A DNA stretch of 41,373 bases from Verrucomicrobiota bacterium (GTDB taxonomy: Bacteria > Verrucomicrobiota > Verrucomicrobiia > Chthoniobacterales > JACTMZ01). This document shows positions 330 through 8,363 of this stretch, piece after piece (the stretch's first letter is position 1; each line of letters opens with the position of its first letter). The notes beneath the pieces were generated by a model. It was not told the DNA's origin. It worked only from the letters and a program-made list of their open reading frames with translations, and did not search any database. The stretch spans positions 1 to 41,373 of the forward strand of contig JBEDBL010000001.1 of the NCBI GenBank assembly GCA_041177245.1, read 5' to 3'. The translations under genes and the position numbers were made by a program.

Positions 330-1244
330 CTATTCCGGAAGGGGCGTCGGGTTGGCCGGTGTCACCGTGACATCGGCGCCGGGCATGGCATCGGCGACCG
401 AGCGGCGGATGCGATCGATCCGCTCGTTGACATCCTTCATGGACATCTGTGGATCGAACCCGAGGAACAACTCCACATAGAGCCGCGAACCCGACCGGCG
501 GGTCCGGATCTTGTGCAGAAGATCGTAGTCATCGAAGCATTCGGCGAGGCAGCGCAGGATCCGTATTTGCATCGTTTCCCCGAGAGCGACATCAAGCAGA
601 TCGCCGACCGATTCGGTGGCGATCGCCCAGGCGCTGTGGAGCATGAAGGCCACCCCGACGAATGAGGCCAGCGGGTCGAGGTGCTGGCTCCACACCTGAT
701 CGCGGAAGACGATTTCGACGATGAGGGTGAGCGCCATGAGCGCATCGAAACTCGCCTTGGCGAACCAAAGCCTGGCTTGCGAGGCAATGATCGGAGAATG
801 CTGCGACTTGAGCAGATGGCGGTTGCGCAACGAGATGGCGAAACCAATCACGGCGTAGACCGAGAAGATAACTATCCCCGGCACGGTTCCGTGCGGCTCC
901 ACCGGATGCTTCAGATGATAAAAAGCCTGCACCGCGATAACCACCGCCGCGCCGGTCATCAGCACCACGATGCTCATGCTTACCAGGTTTTCCAGTTTTC
1001 CGATGCCGTAGGTGAAACGATGGCTCGGTGCACGGCGCACGGCGCGCAGTGTGATGAAGGCGGCCAGAACCGCGGTGGTGTCACCCAACTCTTTGAGAAA
1101 ATCGCTGAGAATGGTCAGCGAGTTGGAGTGGAAAGCAGCGCCGCCCATCAGCAAGACATCGACCAGGCAAAAAGCCAGAGCGATGGCCAGGCTGCGCTCG
1201 CGCTCACACGGCTTGCCCGCCCCTGTTCCGCCGCTCGCCTTCAA
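330..1244 (-). CDS. Cation diffusion facilitator (CDF) family divalent-metal efflux transporter
   Basis: 304-aa ORF with multiple TM helices. CDF-type TM2 region FHSNSLTILSDFLKELGD and the motif FTYGIGKLENL are present. The start codon is TTG (reverse complement of 1242-1244) and overlaps the upstream STAS stop as TTGA. Confidence 0.85.
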   Translation of the reverse strand: MKASGGTGAGKPCERERSLAIALAFCLVDVLLMGGAAFHSNSLTILSDFLKELGDTTAVLAAFITLRAVRRAPSHRFTYGIGKLENLVSMSIVVLMTGAAVVIAVQAFYHLKHPVEPHGTVPGIVIFSVYAVIGFAISLRNRHLLKSQHSPIIASQARLWFAKASFDALMALTLIVEIVFRDQVWSQHLDPLASFVGVAFMLHSAWAIATESVGDLLDVALGETMQIRILRCLAECFDDYDLLHKIRTRRSGSRLYVELFLGFDPQMSMKDVNERIDRIRRSVADAMPGADVTVTPANPTPLPE

Positions 1245-1567
1245 GAGAGAGCCGACTCGAGAGTTTCGTGGACATCGAGAACGCCGATGAATCCTGACAT
1301 TTCGAATAACTCCTGCAGCGGCTTGGTCAACTCGGCGAAGCGGCAGCGGACTCCTCGTGTTTTCGCGCGCTTGGCCGTGGCAAGAAAGACACGCAAGGTC
1401 GCGCTGCTCGCGTAGGAAACTTCAACGCAGTGAAAAACGATGGAACTGGACGCGTCAGCCAGCAAGTTGTTGATGGCTTCCTCGAGCTGGTGCGAGGCAG
1501 GCGCATCCAGCCGCCCCTCGGGGGAAACGACCACAAAATCCCCTTCTTGCCGGTGGGTTATTTGCAT
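1241..1567 (-). CDS. Stand-alone STAS-domain protein (SpoIIAA/RsbV-like anti-sigma-factor antagonist)
   Basis: 108 aa with an ATG at 1567. It shows the STAS pattern VVVSPEGRLDAPASHQLEEAI ... HCVEVSYASSATLRVFL ... ELFEMSGF, with a Ser at the position of the usual phospho-acceptor. Confidence 0.8.
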   Translation of the reverse strand: MQITHRQEGDFVVVSPEGRLDAPASHQLEEAINNLLADASSSIVFHCVEVSYASSATLRVFLATAKRAKTRGVRCRFAELTKPLQELFEMSGFIGVLDVHETLESALS

Positions 1568-1637: not shown

Positions 1638-2450
1638 TCAGACGTAGGTTTTGCGCAACATCTCCGCGACCGGACCATCCAGTTGTTCGCGGCGTCTCAC
1701 GTCCTCGAACCGCTGCAGGAGATCCTCCGGCCGGGCGCGCGCCTTTTCGGGTCCTTGGAGATCGTGGAGGATACTGCCCCGGTTCATCATGATGAGACGG
1801 TCGCCTAGGTGGACGGCTTGTTGCATGGAATGCGTGACCATCAGCGTGGTGAGTTTGTCGCGCTTGATGATCTCGTGGGTCAGGCGGATCACCTGATCGG
1901 CGCTCTTCGGGTCGAGGGCCGCGGTGTGCTCGTCGAGCAACAAGAGATCGGGCTTGAGCCACGACGCCATCAACAAAGTGAGTGCCTGCCGCTGTCCGCC
2001 GGAAAGTGTGCCGATGTCGTTGTCCAGACGGTCCTCTAGACCCATATTCAAGCTCCTAACGCGTTCGCGCAGTTCCGAGCGCAAGACGCGCGGTATGGCC
2101 CAGGCCAATCCTCGACGCAATCCGCGGCGCGCGGCCATGGCGAGATTCTCGGCGATGGTCATGTTTGGTGCGGTGCCGCTGTAGGGATTCTGAAAAACCC
2201 TCCCTATGAGTTTCGCCCGCCGGTGTTCCGGCCATTTGGTGATGTCATGACCGGACAAACTCACGGTTCCGCGGTCGAGGGGAAACGTTCCGGCCACGGC
2301 ATTGAGCAGGGTGGATTTTCCCGAACCGTTCGTGCCGATGATGATGAGGAACGACCCCTCCAAAAGGTTGAAAGAGACATCACACAAGGCGGACACCTCA
2401 TTGGGTGTTCCCGCGTGGAATGTTTTTCCGATACCTGAGACTTCAAGCAT
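1638..2450 (-). CDS. ABC transporter ATP-binding protein (COG1101-like)
   Basis: Walker A GTNGSGKST, ABC signature LSGGQRQ, Walker B LLLLDEHTAALD and H-loop MVTHS are all present. I moved the start to MLEVSGIGKTF (ATG at 2450-2448), 1 nt after the permease stop. The upstream 45 codons of the track ORF overlap the permease gene. Confidence 0.9.
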   Translation of the reverse strand: MLEVSGIGKTFHAGTPNEVSALCDVSFNLLEGSFLIIIGTNGSGKSTLLNAVAGTFPLDRGTVSLSGHDITKWPEHRRAKLIGRVFQNPYSGTAPNMTIAENLAMAARRGLRRGLAWAIPRVLRSELRERVRSLNMGLEDRLDNDIGTLSGGQRQALTLLMASWLKPDLLLLDEHTAALDPKSADQVIRLTHEIIKRDKLTTLMVTHSMQQAVHLGDRLIMMNRGSILHDLQGPEKARARPEDLLQRFEDVRRREQLDGPVAEMLRKTYV

Positions 2451-2451
2451 G

Positions 2452-3381
2452 TCAGCGCGCCCTCCCTGCTCGCGAACGCAGACCAGCCAGCGCGCCAGGA
2501 ACGACAAGCGCCAGGAAGACAAAGACCGCGGTGATGAGTTTGAGATCGTTCGGGTCGAGTCCCCAGCGCAGAGCGATGGCGACAATCAGACGGAAAAGCA
2601 GCGAACCCATGATTGCACCGGTGATGACGATGCCAGTGCTTTTGCTCCCGACCAGAGCCTCGCCGATGATCACGCTGGCCAATCCCCACACGACCATGCC
2701 GATGCCCATCTGCACATCGGCGAAACCCTGATATTGCGCCAGAAGGGAACCGGAGAGCGCGATCAGTCCGTTGGAAACGGCCAAGCCGAAGATCAGGATG
2801 AAGTCCACGCTGCCGCCCAGCGCGCGGATCATCTGCGGGTTGTCGCCAGCGGCACGCATGGCCGTCCCGAATTCCGTGCGGAAAAAGAGGTAAAGGATCA
2901 TCCCCGCGCCGGCCACCATGGCGGCCGCCAGGCAGAGCACCGATGCGTCGCGTTGATCCACATCCCATCCGAAGACATGCACGTCACCCGGACCGAAAAT
3001 CATTCCGAACAAGGATTCGGATTGCGTGACAAGCGTGGTCTCGTTGAGCAACGGCAGATTGCTTTTGCCCATAACGTGCAGGTTGATGGAATAAAGCGCG
3101 GTCATGACGAGAATGCCGCTGAGCAGACCGTTGATGCGGAATTTGGCGTTGAGCAAGCCCGTCACCGTTCCGGCGAGCACGCCGGCGAAAAACCCCGCCA
3201 ATGTGGCGAGGGCCGGAGGCCAGTGCATGACGAGCAGCGAGGCGGTCACCGCAGCGCCGAGAGTGATGGATCCGTCGGCCGTGATGTCGGGAAAATTAAA
3301 AATGCGAAAGCTCAGGTAAACCCCGAGGGCGAGCAGCGCGAGGATCAACCCGACCGTGGAGGCTCCGAGCAGCAGCGTCAT
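2452..3381 (-). CDS. ABC transporter permease (COG4120-like)
   Basis: Polytopic membrane protein beginning MTLLLGASTVGLILALLALGVYLSFRIFNFPDITADGSITLGAA. The ATG at 3381 overlaps the upstream stop (ATGA at 3378-3381). Confidence 0.85.
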   Translation of the reverse strand: MTLLLGASTVGLILALLALGVYLSFRIFNFPDITADGSITLGAAVTASLLVMHWPPALATLAGFFAGVLAGTVTGLLNAKFRINGLLSGILVMTALYSINLHVMGKSNLPLLNETTLVTQSESLFGMIFGPGDVHVFGWDVDQRDASVLCLAAAMVAGAGMILYLFFRTEFGTAMRAAGDNPQMIRALGGSVDFILIFGLAVSNGLIALSGSLLAQYQGFADVQMGIGMVVWGLASVIIGEALVGSKSTGIVITGAIMGSLLFRLIVAIALRWGLDPNDLKLITAVFVFLALVVPGALAGLRSRAGRAR

Positions 3382-4604
3382 AACAGTTCCTCCCCGCCGG
3401 AAAATTCCACCGGCGCCATCCATACCGCACCACGCATCAACTCCGTCTCGCCGACGCCCTCGATCTCGCGATCGTCACGAAGCAGATGCAGGACCGTCTT
3501 TGCCATGCCGCTCGAGGCTAGTCCCTCCGCAGTGGAAACCAGATCGAGTTTTCCGGAAGGCAGTGGACGGTAAGGAAAGACGGCCGCGTGGAAGTGTCCG
3601 GTCAGATCGCCGCGCGGATCAAGCGGCCGCAAAAACGGGGATAGATCCGCATCGGGTTGCCGCGCGGCGAATCCGGCAATGATGACCACAGTGCGTTGTT
3701 CGTCGCGTTCTCCGGTGAAATTAAGCCAATCCCGCACCCCGGGGAAAGAGAACGGAGAAATGCCGGACGCCTCAGCGGGAGAGCGGAGCAAGGTGGCGCC
3801 GATCACACCCGTGCTTTCCGCAACAGCAACAAAGGCTCCGGACACGTAGCCCCCGCGTTCCATCGCGGCCGTGACCAACGCGGAAAAGCCGATCGTTCCG
3901 CGCACACTCTGCGATGCTTCAAAGCGCAGTTGTCGCGAAAACGCACCGCGCGCCGCCAGACCGTAGAGCAGCGAAGCTTCGGGAACCATGCGCGCCTCGG
4001 CCAATTGGAAATCGGGAACACTGCTGCCATCGGTCGGCATGGCGAGAGATGCACCTCCTGCGCAAAGCAACTCCCCGAAACGCGAGCCCGTGCTCCCGGC
4101 GGGACCGAAGGCCCCGAGTCCGATGACCACATCATCCGGACCCAGCCGCGCTTTCGTCCCTTCGCCGTCGCATGCCCCTGCGGCAAATTTTTCAGGATCG
4201 CCATGCATGCGTCCGCGCAACACGGAAACGGCCGAAAGAAGATGTTCCTCGAAAACGGTGCCTTGGGATTCCCAAGTTTCGGCCGCAGGCTCCGGCGCGG
4301 GAACTTGTTCGAGGAGCAAGCCGGCCAAGCCGGAAAGTTCGAGAACGGACATGACGTCGGCGTCCGCCCCGACGATGCGAAGATTGCCGCGGGCGGTGCC
4401 CAGCGTGCGGTGGTATTTGAAGAGAATCCGCACGCCGGCGGAGCTGATGTAGTTCACCCCGGAGAGATCGAGTTCGATCTGCCGGTGGCCGCCCCGCAGC
4501 GCTTCCTCGATCGCCGAACCGACATGAGGCGCCCAATTCCCGTCGAAACGCCCGGCCAACTTGAGGCCGAGAAAATTTTCACCGCGGTTCGAAGTGATCT
4601 CCAT
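3378..4604 (-). CDS. STAS-domain fusion protein (N-terminal STAS plus about 300 aa of unrecognised C-terminal region) embedded in the ABC operon
   Basis: The start was set at MEITSNRGENF (ATG at 4604-4602), 2 nt after the binding-protein stop. STAS motifs present: LKLAGRFDGNWAPHVGSAIEEAL ... ELDLSGVNYISSAGVRILF ... VMSVLELSGL. I do not recognise the remainder (ETWESQGTVF...EFSGGEELL). Confidence 0.7.
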   Translation of the reverse strand: MEITSNRGENFLGLKLAGRFDGNWAPHVGSAIEEALRGGHRQIELDLSGVNYISSAGVRILFKYHRTLGTARGNLRIVGADADVMSVLELSGLAGLLLEQVPAPEPAAETWESQGTVFEEHLLSAVSVLRGRMHGDPEKFAAGACDGEGTKARLGPDDVVIGLGAFGPAGSTGSRFGELLCAGGASLAMPTDGSSVPDFQLAEARMVPEASLLYGLAARGAFSRQLRFEASQSVRGTIGFSALVTAAMERGGYVSGAFVAVAESTGVIGATLLRSPAEASGISPFSFPGVRDWLNFTGERDEQRTVVIIAGFAARQPDADLSPFLRPLDPRGDLTGHFHAAVFPYRPLPSGKLDLVSTAEGLASSGMAKTVLHLLRDDREIEGVGETELMRGAVWMAPVEFSGGEELL

Positions 4605-4606
4605 GG

Positions 4607-6643
4607 CTACGGTTTCTCCTGTTTCGCTGCCCGCGCGACCAGTTCCGGCGGAAATGTAATGCCGAGTTTGCGCGCGGCATCGTCGTTCAACCAAATAACA
4701 TTCTCGGCCACATTGAGCATGGGGATAGAGCCCGGGCTTTCGCCGCACAAAATCCGAGCAGCCATCCCGCCGGCCACCACGCCGGGTTGGCGGAAACCGA
4801 GACCGACGCAAGCCAGCGCGCCGCGCCGCGCCGCCAGCGGATCGTCGGTGAAAAGCGGGAGTTCCGCGTCGCGCGAAACCTGGATCACCGCGTCGAAACC
4901 CTGCATGACCGTGTTGTCGGTCTGTGTGTAGATGGCATCCACGCCCCGCGCGACAAGCGCCTGCGCGGCCGTGCCCACTTCCGACGAGCTCGCCACGGTC
5001 ACTTCCTCGAGCGTGAATCCCGCGGCGCGGAAAATATCGCGGGCCACGCCGATTACCTTGACCGAATTCGCCACGGAGGCATTGTAAATTGTCCCGATTT
5101 TTTTGGCGCGCGGAAGGATTTTCCGGATGGCATCGACCATGTCCTGCACCGGAGGAAAAGATCCGGTTCCGGTGATGCCGGGCAAATGGTTGTCCAACGA
5201 CTTGCCCGCGCCCGCCGCCACCGGATCAGTCACGGCACTGAAAACAACAGGCTTGTTTCTGACCAGGGTGCACGCACCGCCGAGCACGGGCGTGGTCATG
5301 ACGAAAATTAGATCACGGTCGGAAGATTCGAGATTTTTGAGCATGGAGGGCACATTGGCGATCTCGCCCTGCGCGTGGGTGCGCGTCACGTCGAGATTTT
5401 TTCCCTCCTCGAAACCGGCGGCACGCAACCCGTCGATAAAGCCGGCCAGACAATTTTCCTGGTTTTCCTCCGAAGAGAAGTAGGCGGCGCCGATTTTGTA
5501 GGCCGTTCCCGGGCGCGGTTTGGGCACAGCGGCGCCGAAGCCCGGGAGATTTGTCTCGGTGGCCGTGATGTATCCGGCGGCTTTGCTGCGGACAGCATCG
5601 GGTATGGTCCAGCGGTCGCGCAATCCCTCCAGAGCAGTTTCATTGTAAAGGAACGCTTCGGGCACATAGTTCTCCACGGGGATTGTCGCCGGATTTTTGC
5701 CGTCGAGGACATCGGCAGCCAGTTCGCCGACGGCGCGGCCGACCTCCAAGTAATTCGCGCCCAGATCGAACAGCCCGCCCGATTTGATGTTGAGCGGCAG
5801 CGAACTGAACACGGGAATTCCCGCTTTCGTTGCCGCCGCGATGATCGGCTCGGATGCCGTCGAAACGGTGATGTCGCCGCTGATCCAGAGGGCTTCCGCA
5901 CCGCGCGCCAGCACCGAACCTGCCGCCTCGATGGCGCCGGTGGAACTGTCCGCATTGGCTTCGATCAACTCGATGCCGAGATCGGAGCAGACCTTGCGCG
6001 CGATGGTTGTCTGGGCCACCGAGTTCGCCTCGGCCGCGTTCCAGACGAGTCCCACACGCCGGAGCTCGGGTCGCATCACGCGGGCCATGCGGAAGATCGA
6101 TTCGATCGGTTGCAAGCAACCGTAGCCCGTCATGTAGGGCGGATGGTCGAGATGGTTCTCGCGGCTGATGCCGACCCCGGCACCGTAGGGATCGGTCACC
6201 AGGCCGAACACGTGCCTCGTTCTGGCTCCCGTTTTGTTGGCGCCCGCCACGGTCTGCAGCGAGATGGTGCTCATGCTCAGGATGAAATCGTAGCTGCCGC
6301 TGGTCACCTCTCGCGCGATGGTGTTCGCGGTGCCGATGTCGTTCTCGGCGCAAAAGCGGCTCAACTTTATGCGGTCACCATCCGCGTAACCGCGCGCGGC
6401 CAAGGCTTCGACCGCACCGGCGGCGCCGTCCTCGAGCACACGCGTGGCCGCGTGCTCGACCAAAGCCACCCTGATCGGACCCCCGGAAACCTTGGTAGAC
6501 TCGCGCGATCCGCGGTCGGTGTAGAGAAGGATCGCGGACGCCAGGAGGATCAAAATGAATCCGAGGGCTAGTCGCTTGAAAGTCTCGAGCATGGCGGCGG
6601 GTGCAGCCATCCATTTAGGGGGGCAAAAATGTTTTGTCGCCAT
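4607..6643 (-). CDS. ABC transporter substrate-binding protein with two tandem COG2984/ABC_sub_bind-like domains
   Basis: 678 aa with an N-terminal hydrophobic anchor (LALGFILILLASAILLY). The two halves align: HVFGLVTDPYGAGVGISRENHL..TGYG..RRVGLVWNAAEANSV versus VVFSAVTDPVAAGAGKSLDNHL..TGTG..KKIGTIYNASVANSV. Alternative ATG starts exist at 6610 and 6592. Confidence 0.8.
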   Translation of the reverse strand: MATKHFCPPKWMAAPAAMLETFKRLALGFILILLASAILLYTDRGSRESTKVSGGPIRVALVEHAATRVLEDGAAGAVEALAARGYADGDRIKLSRFCAENDIGTANTIAREVTSGSYDFILSMSTISLQTVAGANKTGARTRHVFGLVTDPYGAGVGISRENHLDHPPYMTGYGCLQPIESIFRMARVMRPELRRVGLVWNAAEANSVAQTTIARKVCSDLGIELIEANADSSTGAIEAAGSVLARGAEALWISGDITVSTASEPIIAAATKAGIPVFSSLPLNIKSGGLFDLGANYLEVGRAVGELAADVLDGKNPATIPVENYVPEAFLYNETALEGLRDRWTIPDAVRSKAAGYITATETNLPGFGAAVPKPRPGTAYKIGAAYFSSEENQENCLAGFIDGLRAAGFEEGKNLDVTRTHAQGEIANVPSMLKNLESSDRDLIFVMTTPVLGGACTLVRNKPVVFSAVTDPVAAGAGKSLDNHLPGITGTGSFPPVQDMVDAIRKILPRAKKIGTIYNASVANSVKVIGVARDIFRAAGFTLEEVTVASSSEVGTAAQALVARGVDAIYTQTDNTVMQGFDAVIQVSRDAELPLFTDDPLAARRGALACVGLGFRQPGVVAGGMAARILCGESPGSIPMLNVAENVIWLNDDAARKLGITFPPELVARAAKQEKP

Positions 6644-6723: not shown

Positions 6724-7107
6724 ATGGGAAATCTTCTCATTGTCGGCGCAGGCGGATTCCTCGGGGCATGCACCCGTTATCTGCTCGGCGGATGGCTTCT
6801 GCACCATGCAGTGACGTCGAAATTTCCGTGGAGCACGTTCGTCGTGAATGTGCTCGGATGTCTGGTCATCGGCTTTCTTTCGGGCGCGGCGGAAAGGTTC
6901 GATGCCTTCGGTCCGCAAGCACGCCTTTTTCTTTTCACCGGATTGCTCGGCGGATTCACCACGTTCTCGGCCTTCGGCTTGGAGACATTCATCCTCCTGC
7001 GGCGGGGCGAATGGTTGATCGCCGGGTTCTACGCCGCGGCCAGCGTGATGGTTTGCCTTTTTGCCGTGTGGGCGGGGTTCCGTGCCATGCACTTGGTCGG
7101 GCGATGA
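6724..7107 (+). CDS. crcB: Fluoride ion channel CrcB/FluC
   Basis: 127 aa with four TM segments. Typical CrcB motifs are present: GGFLGACTRY, TFVVNVLGCLVIGF and GLLGGFTTFSAF. Confidence 0.9.
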   Translation: MGNLLIVGAGGFLGACTRYLLGGWLLHHAVTSKFPWSTFVVNVLGCLVIGFLSGAAERFDAFGPQARLFLFTGLLGGFTTFSAFGLETFILLRRGEWLIAGFYAAASVMVCLFAVWAGFRAMHLVGR

Positions 7108-8363
7108 GGTCTGTTCTTTGCGGTTTGGCCTGCGCCTTTGCCGCCATCGCATCGGCCGCACCGCCGCAGGGCGCGGACGACACGGGACAGATGGAAAACC
7201 TGCCGTGGCTCGAGTGGGACAACGCAACCGGCGACTGGTGGCGGAGCCGGCCTCTCATCTCCGGCAGAGGCATCGACTTCACTGCGACCTACACCGCGCA
7301 GGTTTGGGGAAACGTGACCGGCGGACTCGAGCAAAACGCCGCGTATTTCGGATTGCTGCAATTCGGTTTGGATATCGATTTGGAAAAAGTCGTCGGATGG
7401 AAAGGCGCTTCATTCAACACGACGTGGATTTGGATGATGGGCGACCAGATAACGACGCCTTTTGTCGGTTCCAATTTCGCAGTCAGCGGTATCGAGGCCC
7501 CGAGGGGATTCCGCGCGCTCGATTTGTGGCTCCAGCAAAAGTTTTTCGGGGACAAACTCACGCTGCGCGCCGGCATTTTCAACGCGGACCGCGATTTTAC
7601 CCTCTCGGAGTATTCGGCTTTTTTTCTCAACAGCGCCTTCGGTTGGCCCGTGGTCTACGACGGACGGTCAGGTGGCGAGCCGTCCTATCCTTACGCAACT
7701 CCGGGACTCTATGCGGCGTGGCAACCGGCCGAGGGCTGGATTTTCCAAACGGCGGTCATGCAGGGAGCGGCCTACTCGCAGAACGCGAATTTTTATTGGA
7801 ACATCAACCGCGCGGACGGCCTGATGTTTCTCGGGGAAAGCATTTACTCCTGGCGCAAAGCGGAGCTTCCCGGAACAGCCAAGCTCGGCGCCGTCTTCCA
7901 GGACGGTGATCTCGATGTGGCGGGAAGCGAAGGCGAGTATGCTTGGGGCGGAGGTTTTTATTATGCGATTCTCGACCAGTCGCTTTACGTCGAGCCGGAG
8001 TCGACCGAGGAAACGCCTCAGGGCTTCGGCGGTTTTCTGCGCGGCGGTTTTTCCGCGCCGCAAAGATCCAGCTCCCTAGGTTTCTTCGCGCAAAGCGGGC
8101 TCGTCTATGACGGACTGATTCCGGGACGCGATGACGATTCAATCGGACTGGCTTTCGGATGGAACCAGGAATCGCACGGCGAAGCATCGACCCTGACGGG
8201 CAGCAACCGGGGGCTGGAGATGGTTTTCGATGTTTCTTACCAGGCGCAGTTGTCCCCGTGGCTCAGCGTGCAACCCGATCTGCAATACATCATCCAACCG
8301 GGCGGAAGCACCGCGATCCCGAACGCTCTCGTCATCGGGGTCAGTGTGGGCCTCGACTTCTGA
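7104..8363 (+). CDS. Carbohydrate-selective porin, OprB family
   Basis: The start was set at MRSVLCGLACAFAAIASAAPP (a signal peptide; ATG at 7104-7106), which overlaps the crcB stop as ATGA. The OprB-like region is GDWWRSRPLISGRGIDFTATYTAQVWGNVTGGL...LDIDLEKVVGWKGASF, and the protein has an aromatic C-terminus (GLDF). Confidence 0.8.
   Translation: MRSVLCGLACAFAAIASAAPPQGADDTGQMENLPWLEWDNATGDWWRSRPLISGRGIDFTATYTAQVWGNVTGGLEQNAAYFGLLQFGLDIDLEKVVGWKGASFNTTWIWMMGDQITTPFVGSNFAVSGIEAPRGFRALDLWLQQKFFGDKLTLRAGIFNADRDFTLSEYSAFFLNSAFGWPVVYDGRSGGEPSYPYATPGLYAAWQPAEGWIFQTAVMQGAAYSQNANFYWNINRADGLMFLGESIYSWRKAELPGTAKLGAVFQDGDLDVAGSEGEYAWGGGFYYAILDQSLYVEPESTEETPQGFGGFLRGGFSAPQRSSSLGFFAQSGLVYDGLIPGRDDDSIGLAFGWNQESHGEASTLTGSNRGLEMVFDVSYQAQLSPWLSVQPDLQYIIQPGGSTAIPNALVIGVSVGLDF

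Follow-up and report, generated by a model that had tools for sequence, protein, structure and literature searches.

Partner-switching modules of the RsbV/SpoIIAA-RsbW/SpoIIAB-RsbU/SpoIIE kind normally control sigma factors. To our knowledge, such modules are abundant in Verrucomicrobiota, Planctomycetota and Bacteroidota, where most are without a known output, and only few cases are known of post-translational control of a bacterial ATP-binding cassette (ABC) importer. Previously, the SiaABCD system of Pseudomonas aeruginosa was shown to operate without a sigma factor: a PP2C/kinase pair sets the phosphorylation state of a STAS-like protein, and the target is a diguanylate cyclase (PMC7647112). 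A STAS protein is also found beside an ABC transporter in the E. coli MlaFEDB system, a lipid-trafficking system of the MCE type. MlaB, a cytoplasmic single-domain protein of 97 residues for which no kinase is known, is encoded with the transporter; a unique C-terminal extension of the ATPase MlaF docks at the MlaF-MlaB interface, and the phosphomimetic change Thr52Glu in MlaB weakens binding (PMC7367683). Here we describe STASX, a gene for a STAS domain fused to a larger C-terminal domain that lies between the substrate-binding protein (SBP) and permease genes of an ABC importer. It is located in a stretch of 41,373 nucleotides from a Verrucomicrobiota bacterium (contig JBEDBL010000001.1 of assembly GCA_041177245.1), which we refer to as the window.

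By analogy with these systems, we propose that STASX is a phospho-regulated accessory subunit of the importer, following an MlaB-like logic, in which a metal-binding domain would sense or convert a metabolite; we put the probability of this reading at roughly 0.5. The features on which the argument turns are listed below, with coordinates in the window.

1638..2450, minus strand: ABC ATPase, 270 residues, ABC_tran (Pfam)
1641..1712, minus strand: clade-specific C-terminal tail of the ATPase (RFEDVRRREQLD..VAEML...YV), from comparison of ATPases
2452..3381, minus strand: permease, BPD_transp_2 (Pfam), whose start overlaps the STASX stop
3378..4604, minus strand: STASX, a fusion of STAS and acetolactate decarboxylase (ALDC)-like domains, 408 residues, cytoplasmic, from its translation, an AlphaFold2 model and homologs
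3381..4220, minus strand: C-terminal domain of ALDC/PTD012 fold, residues 129-408, with a probable metal/ligand site, from VIA, Foldseek and invariant residues
4320..4604, minus strand: STAS domain, residues 1-95, RsbV/SpoIIAA type, from PF13466/PF01740, TIGR00377 and VIA
4440..4442, minus strand: Ser55 codon in the box Y-I-S-S55-A-G-V-R, from conservation, motif and fold, and PMC7367683
4607..6643, minus strand: tandem SBP, 678 residues, two ABC_sub_bind (PF04392) domains (Pfam)

The four genes follow one another in the order SBP, STASX, permease and ATPase, as an earlier note on this DNA had stated, and the tight junctions that it described were confirmed when read directly. The SBP stop codon TAG (4607-4609) is separated by a 2-nucleotide gap from the STASX ATG at 4604, which is preceded by AGGAG about 11 nucleotides upstream. 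The TGA stop of STASX (3378-3380) overlaps the permease ATG (3379-3381) as ATGA, and a single nucleotide lies between the permease stop (2452-2454) and the ATPase ATG at 2450. A longer, TTG-initiated open reading frame (ORF) for STASX was considered and rejected, because the homologs all begin at the same Met, which supports the form of 408 residues. Neither a signal peptide nor a transmembrane segment was found in STASX, which indicates a cytoplasmic protein.

A word-indexed search with STASX as a single-protein query returned 533 matches. The homologs are full-length (400-445 residues), the whole protein is represented by about 366 clusters at 50% identity (E<1e-30), and the source annotations call the homologs only "anti-anti-sigma factor" or "STAS domain-containing protein". 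A scan with one genome per species yielded 80 related loci, whose gene order was read by tblastn with the four window proteins. In 79 of these, from at least five phyla and wherever the contig was long enough, STASX was found within the SBP-STASX-permease-ATPase cassette. The hosts are Verrucomicrobiota, Planctomycetota, Bacteroidota, one Acidobacteria metagenome-assembled genome (MAG) and one Methylococcaceae MAG, with a few MAGs labelled otherwise; such taxonomy labels may include mis-binned contigs. The sole exception (L017) comes from a very fragmented MAG and has unrelated genes 3' of STASX and no transporter genes. Variant gene orders were also seen in two more distant versions, namely SBP, permease, STASX, ATPase (L126) and STASX, permease, SBP (L133), and both keep STASX beside the permease. 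Two further loci are irregular: at L078 (9184-10930) the match to the permease and that to the ATPase each fall into two parts, owing to frameshifts or sequencing errors, and at L072 (9193-15275) three opposite-strand genes shift the ATPase gene by about 4 kb.

The distribution of STASX followed that of one kind of transporter. Among 201 sampled Verrucomicrobiota genomes, the seven with a close permease (E<1e-60) were exactly the seven with an adjacent STASX ortholog, and in three genomes the permease was distant (32-41% tblastn identity) and the plain SBP-permease-ATPase operon had no STASX; a profile of the C-terminal domain matched nine of the 201. Similarly, 13 of 201 Gammaproteobacteria genomes had a permease homolog; STASX was adjacent in the four closest (50-62% identity by tblastn) and absent from the other nine (30-45%). 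The permease shares 58-78% identity with those of STASX loci in other phyla, against 30-45% for operons that lack STASX, while the ATPases of STASX loci share 62-81% across phyla and STASX itself 30-58%. As judged from this distribution, STASX marks a distinct permease/ATPase transporter clade, and because permease and ATPase are so unusually conserved across phyla (58-81%, with STASX at 30-58%), the cassette appears to move between genomes as a unit.

The earlier note had assigned the gene to the transporter operon, had suggested looking at its co-occurrence with COG2984-type operons, and had named absence from the operons of relatives as the mark of an incidental insertion. The two samples of 201 genomes limit STASX to one transporter clade, and its occurrence within the cassette at all but one of the 80 related loci identifies it, on comparative grounds, as a genuine conserved member of the operon. 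It is scarcely credible that STASX is merely an ordinary anti-anti-sigma-type regulator that happens to sit in this operon and is functionally unconnected to transport. These phyla are rich in STAS, RsbW and PP2C genes, and L017 does have a STASX gene apart from any transporter gene; against such a placement speak the position kept across phyla and in variant orders, the strict co-occurrence with one permease/ATPase clade, and the 30-50% identity range of STASX, which is hard to reconcile with a single recent transfer free of selection.

The ATPases of these loci share a further feature. The C-terminal tail pattern RF(D/E)..R.R.QL...V..(M/L)L...Y(V/I) was found in 70 of 70 complete ATPases of STASX loci, nine of which deviate from the search pattern at a single position, and also in L126, with its variant gene order, and in three loci of Gammaproteobacteria. 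Twelve ATPases from operons that lack STASX either end about 20 residues earlier or carry a shorter, different tail (...DD.L..LG). With only three comparators, the tail had seemed unique to STASX-linked ATPases; the twelve weakened this to a clade-specific, longer and conserved tail. In both this system and MlaFEDB, a STAS protein is thus paired with an ATPase that has a distinctive C-terminal extension, and the parallel with MlaF is suggestive of a possible role for the tail as a docking element.

The N-terminal domain proved to be the canonical STAS domain that the earlier note had recognised. Pfam STAS/STAS_2 matched residues 9-95 (E 9e-13), with 48.7 bits for PF13466 (cut-off 29.2) and 43.3 bits for PF01740 (cut-off 22.6), and the TIGR00377 score of 50.1 bits fell just below its cut-off of 53.45. 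An AlphaFold2 model of STASX, built on 48 homologs, reached a pLDDT (predicted local distance difference test) of 85.7 and a pTM (predicted template modelling score) of 0.71. In structural comparisons with VIA, residues 1-102 of this model matched RsbV (6m36_B) at Z 15.5, with 98 residues aligned and a root-mean-square deviation (rmsd) of 1.7; the scores were Z 14.9 for SpoIIAA (1tid_B) and Z 11.2 for MlaB, so that by fold score the domain is nearer to RsbV than to MlaB. Ser55 was invariant in the 48 orthologs and in eight paralogs of about 25% identity, as were the other residues of the partner face (R19, D21, Y52, S54, A56, G57 and R59) and the box Y-(I/V)-S-S-A-G-(V/I)-R. Motif and fold, read with the published MlaB work (PMC7367683), make Ser55 the putative counterpart of MlaB Thr52 and of the Ser/Thr that is phosphorylated in SpoIIAA/RsbV. 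The domain is of the RsbV/SpoIIAA type and carries the phospho-serine box.

MlaFB is the closest known system in logic. STASX differs from MlaB in its length of 408 residues, in its extra ALDC-fold domain, in belonging to a binding-protein-dependent importer and in its genomic tie to a kinase and a phosphatase; its transporter has a PF04392 SBP and a BPD_transp_2 permease rather than components of the MlaE/MlaD (MCE) type. By this analogy, STASX may work like MlaB while standing outside the MlaB family.

The genomic tie to partner switching was examined over the 80 loci by profile searches. Co-oriented switch genes were found as follows: an HATPase_c_2 kinase at 30 loci, a PP2C (SpoIIE) phosphatase at 22 and a small STAS protein at 30. 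When only well-flanked loci were counted (at least 5 kb on both sides, n=37), 24 had at least one co-oriented switch gene (kinase 18, PP2C 15, small STAS 18), and most of those with a kinase also carried a sensor PP2C and one to four small STAS genes. Because a genome has only a handful of such kinases, we estimate that chance would place one next to the cassette in a few percent of loci. The layouts differ between phyla. Verrucomicrobiota loci (L027, L013) have HisKA-REC-PP2C, kinase, small STAS, SBP, STASX, permease, ATPase and a Cache-type hybrid histidine kinase; a Bacteroidota locus (L071) has SBP, STASX, permease, ATPase, SBP, NMT1-type SBP, dCache-HAMP-PP2C, kinase and small STAS; and the Methylococcaceae MAG (L070) has PP2C, kinase, SBP, STASX, permease and ATPase on one strand. 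Up to four small STAS genes occur in a row (L019). The serine box is common to STASX and these small STAS proteins, consistent with one common kinase, and gene linkage of this kind ties the STASX family to partner switching.

Several side observations concern the switch genes themselves. At L019 (3088-4985), L018 (2511-4983) and L035 (3837-4959), the kinase and SBP genes are separated by two to four small STAS genes, with an interposed PHO4 phosphate transporter gene at L018. At L059 (10825-11760), a single ORF of 311 residues contains both HATPase_c_2 and STAS, as a natural fusion or as two genes merged by the ORF call.

No RsbW-type kinase or PP2C gene is present in the window, as the earlier note had stated, and all PF13581 and PF07228 matches of the source genome (86% complete) lie on other contigs. 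The statement is true but misleading as context, since the cassettes of relatives are joined to kinase, PP2C and small STAS genes. Furthermore, contig C197 of the source genome carries a row of three genes (L113:487-3664) consisting of a HisKA-REC-PP2C, an RsbW-type kinase and a STAS-ALDC-like paralog of STASX, which fills the slot of RsbV. The kinase is the only strong RsbW-type kinase of the genome, and the phosphatase has the same architecture as the operon-linked one of L027; kinase and phosphatase are orthologous to those that accompany the cassette in relatives.

Paralogs of this STAS-ALDC-like type were also seen elsewhere. One (L109) adjoins a HAMP-PP2C gene. Two others, at L106 (6684-10831, genome G200) and L107 (genome G149), are divergent from a fused SBP_bac_1 and BPD_transp_1 importer gene, which is a second, independent association of the STAS-ALDC module with an importer. 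A contig of 5.6 kb in another genome (C252 of G008) carries two identical copies of such a paralog in inverted orientation (L108:724-2082 and 3563-4921).

The STASX cassettes resemble RsbV/RsbW/RsbU-type modules in the STAS fold, the phospho-serine box and, in relatives, the adjacent HATPase_c_2 kinase and PP2C. They differ from those modules in having no sigma factor, in the C-terminal domain of 280 residues, and in being embedded in or joined to transporter genes. They share with SiaABCD the sigma-less arrangement, and in place of the diguanylate cyclase the candidate target would be the ABC importer, the fused ALDC-fold domain, or both. This set of genes also lends itself to the reverse interpretation, in which the transporter is the sensor and STASX the relay. 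Depending on the transport state of the ATPase, STASX would either be kept at the membrane or become available to the RsbW-type kinase, and the switch would act on another target. This interpretation would suit the variety of sensory components in the cassettes (Cache-type hybrid histidine kinase, dCache-HAMP-PP2C, REC-PP2C and additional SBPs, some of them NMT1-type), the presence of as many as four small STAS genes, and a STAS domain whose fold scores nearer to RsbV than to MlaB. Yet neither a sigma factor nor another gene that would be an obvious output is conserved in the cassettes examined, and 13 of the 37 well-flanked loci have the transporter and STASX but no switch genes close by. We consider this interpretation clearly improbable.

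The remaining 300 or so residues of STASX had not been recognised in the earlier note. It was found that they indeed belong to no Pfam family (no match for residues 105-408 even at E<=10), and a sequence-profile search of the PDB with the C-terminal domain gave no match at E<=10; the fold, by contrast, could be assigned as ALDC/PTD012. Residues 129-407 of the model matched the ALDC structure 6inb at VIA Z 16.7, with 205 residues aligned and an rmsd of 3.3, followed by ALDC 1xv2 (Z 16.5), ALDC 4bt2 (Z 15.6) and human PTD012 (1xcr, Z 14.6); the three ALDC structures aligned over 202-205 residues. The structure comparison suggested by the earlier note gave the same answer, with Foldseek reaching the ALDC fold at E 4e-7. 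Membership of PF03306, the sequence family of ALDC, was not found for the domain, and a search of the source genome with PF03306 gave no match. Links of the domain to PP2C-containing clusters in the ESM Atlas were below threshold (0.79) and were taken as noise.

Conservation pointed to a site within this fold. In a set of 33 sequences drawn from several phyla, the polar residues of the domain that never vary are E178, D198, E263, H337, H339, H373 and D377. After the eight paralogs of about 25% identity were added, G162, G164, G167, G177-E178, P190-T191-D192-G193, D198, H337, H339 and H373-L374 were kept. The residues E178, T191-D192, D198, H337, H339 and H373 form a probable metal/ligand site, and this conservation pattern predicts that the domain probably binds a metal or ligand. 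On the structural model, the domain is unannotated, is distantly related to the ALDC fold but lies outside PF03306, and has a strongly constrained pocket of three His and acidic residues.

The active centre of ALDC consists of Thr58, Glu65, Arg145, His194, His196, His207 and Glu253 in B. brevis numbering (PMC9090609). When the domain was compared with a profile of nine bona fide ALDC sequences by hhalign, global alignment failed and only local alignment was obtained, which was weak (E 0.005, probability 7%, range 3-7%). Within this weak alignment, the STASX motif G.GAFG...GE178 is paired with the ALDC motif GDFG.GTF..LDGE65, and LYGL..G.F..R227 with the ALDC block bearing Arg145; ALDC Thr58 is paired with Ala165. 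The best, likewise weak, match in the C-terminal half sets LH373LL.D.R..G on the ALDC strand LHFL.eDR..GG. The first alignment sets the H337-x-H339 strand near the third ALDC His, so that the two alignments map the three His residues differently. Overall, the domain shares with ALDC (AlsD/BudA, PF03306) and human PTD012 (C11orf54) the two-sheet fold and a conserved His cluster, and with ALDC, as weakly aligned, the Glu65 equivalent in its G.G.F...GE motif. It differs from ALDC in lying outside the Pfam family, in having about 70 extra residues, in the loss of Thr58 and in its fusion to STAS. PTD012 is a human zinc protein related to the ALDC fold.

A domain of ALDC/PTD012 fold with a probable metal site leaves room for a catalytic role of STASX. 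In its strongest form, STASX would be mainly an enzyme, a metal-dependent catalyst of decarboxylase or hydrolase type acting on the imported compound, in which the STAS domain would serve only to phospho-switch activity and the protein would be no structural part of the transporter. The fold (Z 14.6-16.7) and the retention of three His, E178, D192 and D198 even in paralogs of 25% identity fit such an enzyme. So do the alignments of E178 with Glu65 and R227 with Arg145, weak as they are (probability 3-7%), and the occurrence of STAS-ALDC-like paralogs away from the PF04392-type transporter. In addition, at two of the nine Gammaproteobacteria loci with a bona fide ALDC gene (PF03306), in two genomes, a stand-alone STAS gene was found immediately upstream on the same strand:

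L118:1501-2546, minus strand: neighbouring STAS and ALDC genes
L119:1112-2148, plus strand: neighbouring STAS and ALDC genes

Genes that are neighbours in some genomes and fused in others are a classical sign of functional coupling, and these pairs also support the fold assignment of the C-terminal domain. The sequence evidence is less favourable to catalysis, since PF03306 membership is lacking, the hhalign probability is only 3-7%, Thr58 is replaced by Ala and the His residues can be mapped in more than one way. An invariable place between SBP and permease genes, with an ATGA overlap, and co-variation with a specific ATPase tail would also be unexpected of a catabolic enzyme. We regard a primarily enzymatic STASX as rather unlikely.

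We return to the proposal that STASX is an accessory subunit of the importer. Taking the gene structure, folds, conserved residues, operon membership and switch-gene linkage in relatives as directly established, we infer ATPase binding, phosphorylation of Ser55, metal or ligand binding and the direction of regulation. STASX would be a cytoplasmic accessory subunit of one clade of PF04392-type ABC importers. Its RsbV-type STAS domain would dock on the ATPase, plausibly via the clade-specific C-terminal tail, like MlaB on MlaF, and the phosphorylation state of Ser55 would switch this docking. Phosphorylation would fall to an RsbW-type serine kinase and dephosphorylation to a sensor PP2C, with the small STAS proteins competing for the kinase; in the source genome, the kinase and the HisKA-REC-PP2C would be supplied from contig C197. 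The ALDC-fold domain, with its invariant pocket of His and acidic residues, would accommodate a metal together with a small metabolite of carboxylate type, either the imported compound or a product of it, and binding or conversion of this metabolite would couple its level to transport. A possible analogy is offered by the C-terminal regulatory domains of MetN, ModC and MalK (trans-inhibition), in which a cytoplasmic ligand-binding module makes ATPase activity depend on the level of a metabolite. Each of these modules is part of the ATPase chain and has an unrelated fold, whereas STASX would be a separate, phospho-switchable subunit. In its most specific form, in which the partner-switch relay directly gates the importer through a STAS subunit on the ATPase tail and a zinc-type ALDC-fold domain reads or converts the transported metabolite, the proposal is tentative and falls somewhat short of an even chance.

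Several observations weigh against this proposal. The 13 well-flanked loci that have no kinase, PP2C or small STAS gene nearby are mostly of the Pirellula type and include the closest relative of the window (L001); neither the window's own clade (L001-L007) nor the Pirellula-type clade has adjacent switch genes, so that adjacent phospho-control is not obligatory. A tail per se is not unique to the clade, as some ATPases from operons that lack STASX also have one, shorter and of different sequence. A search for longer forms in which STASX is fused to the ATPase or permease found none, which is a weak negative. The strong conservation of the pocket would also fit a real enzyme and, together with the ALDC genes that adjoin STAS genes, favours the enzymatic alternative, to which those neighbour pairs lend weight.

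STASX combines elements of known kinds, namely a partner-switch component set without a sigma factor and an ALDC fold without membership of the family, and a switch that normally governs sigma factors may here control a transporter. The earlier note knew of no STAS accessory for the COG2984/COG4120/COG1101 importer class. This held in full-text literature searches, in which we found neither a description of a STAS subunit in the PF04392-type importer class nor a partner switch acting on an ABC importer. If the proposal is true in its most specific form, this would be the first partner switch with membrane transport as its output and the first STAS accessory subunit of an importer. Should STASX indeed connect partner switching with ABC importers, many orphan sets of kinase, phosphatase and STAS genes would gain a target, and the MlaB principle, so far that of a lipid transporter, would extend to nutrient importers; STASX would also define a new, unannotated domain family, in which an ALDC-fold domain is fused to STAS.

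One more STAS gene lies downstream of the importer genes in the window:

1241..1567, minus strand: small stand-alone STAS protein, 108 residues, 70 nucleotides past the ATPase gene (Pfam STAS, E 2e-15)

This gene, which the earlier note had not linked to the importer operon, is coupled to a CDF metal exporter gene (330-1244, minus strand). Because small STAS genes widely accompany the cassette, it may belong with the partner-switch set rather than with the CDF gene, and by such comparison it is probably a further member of that set. The idea that it is a conserved member of the operon was only partly borne out, as L006 is the one close relative in which the ATPase gene is followed by the STAS-CDF pair.

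At the other end of the operon, the C-terminal half of the SBP resembles 3lkv, 6hni and 3lft (E 1e-36 to 1e-44), and solved PF04392 proteins bind L-Trp, L-Tyr or L-Phe (PMC10443332). The form of the SBP varies in relatives, being either tandem or split into two separate genes, and Bacteroidota relatives have further PF04392 and NMT1-type SBP genes after the ATPase gene. Finally, the genes for a crcB fluoride channel and an OprB-family porin overlap (window positions 6724-8363, plus strand), and this pair is divergent from the importer operon.

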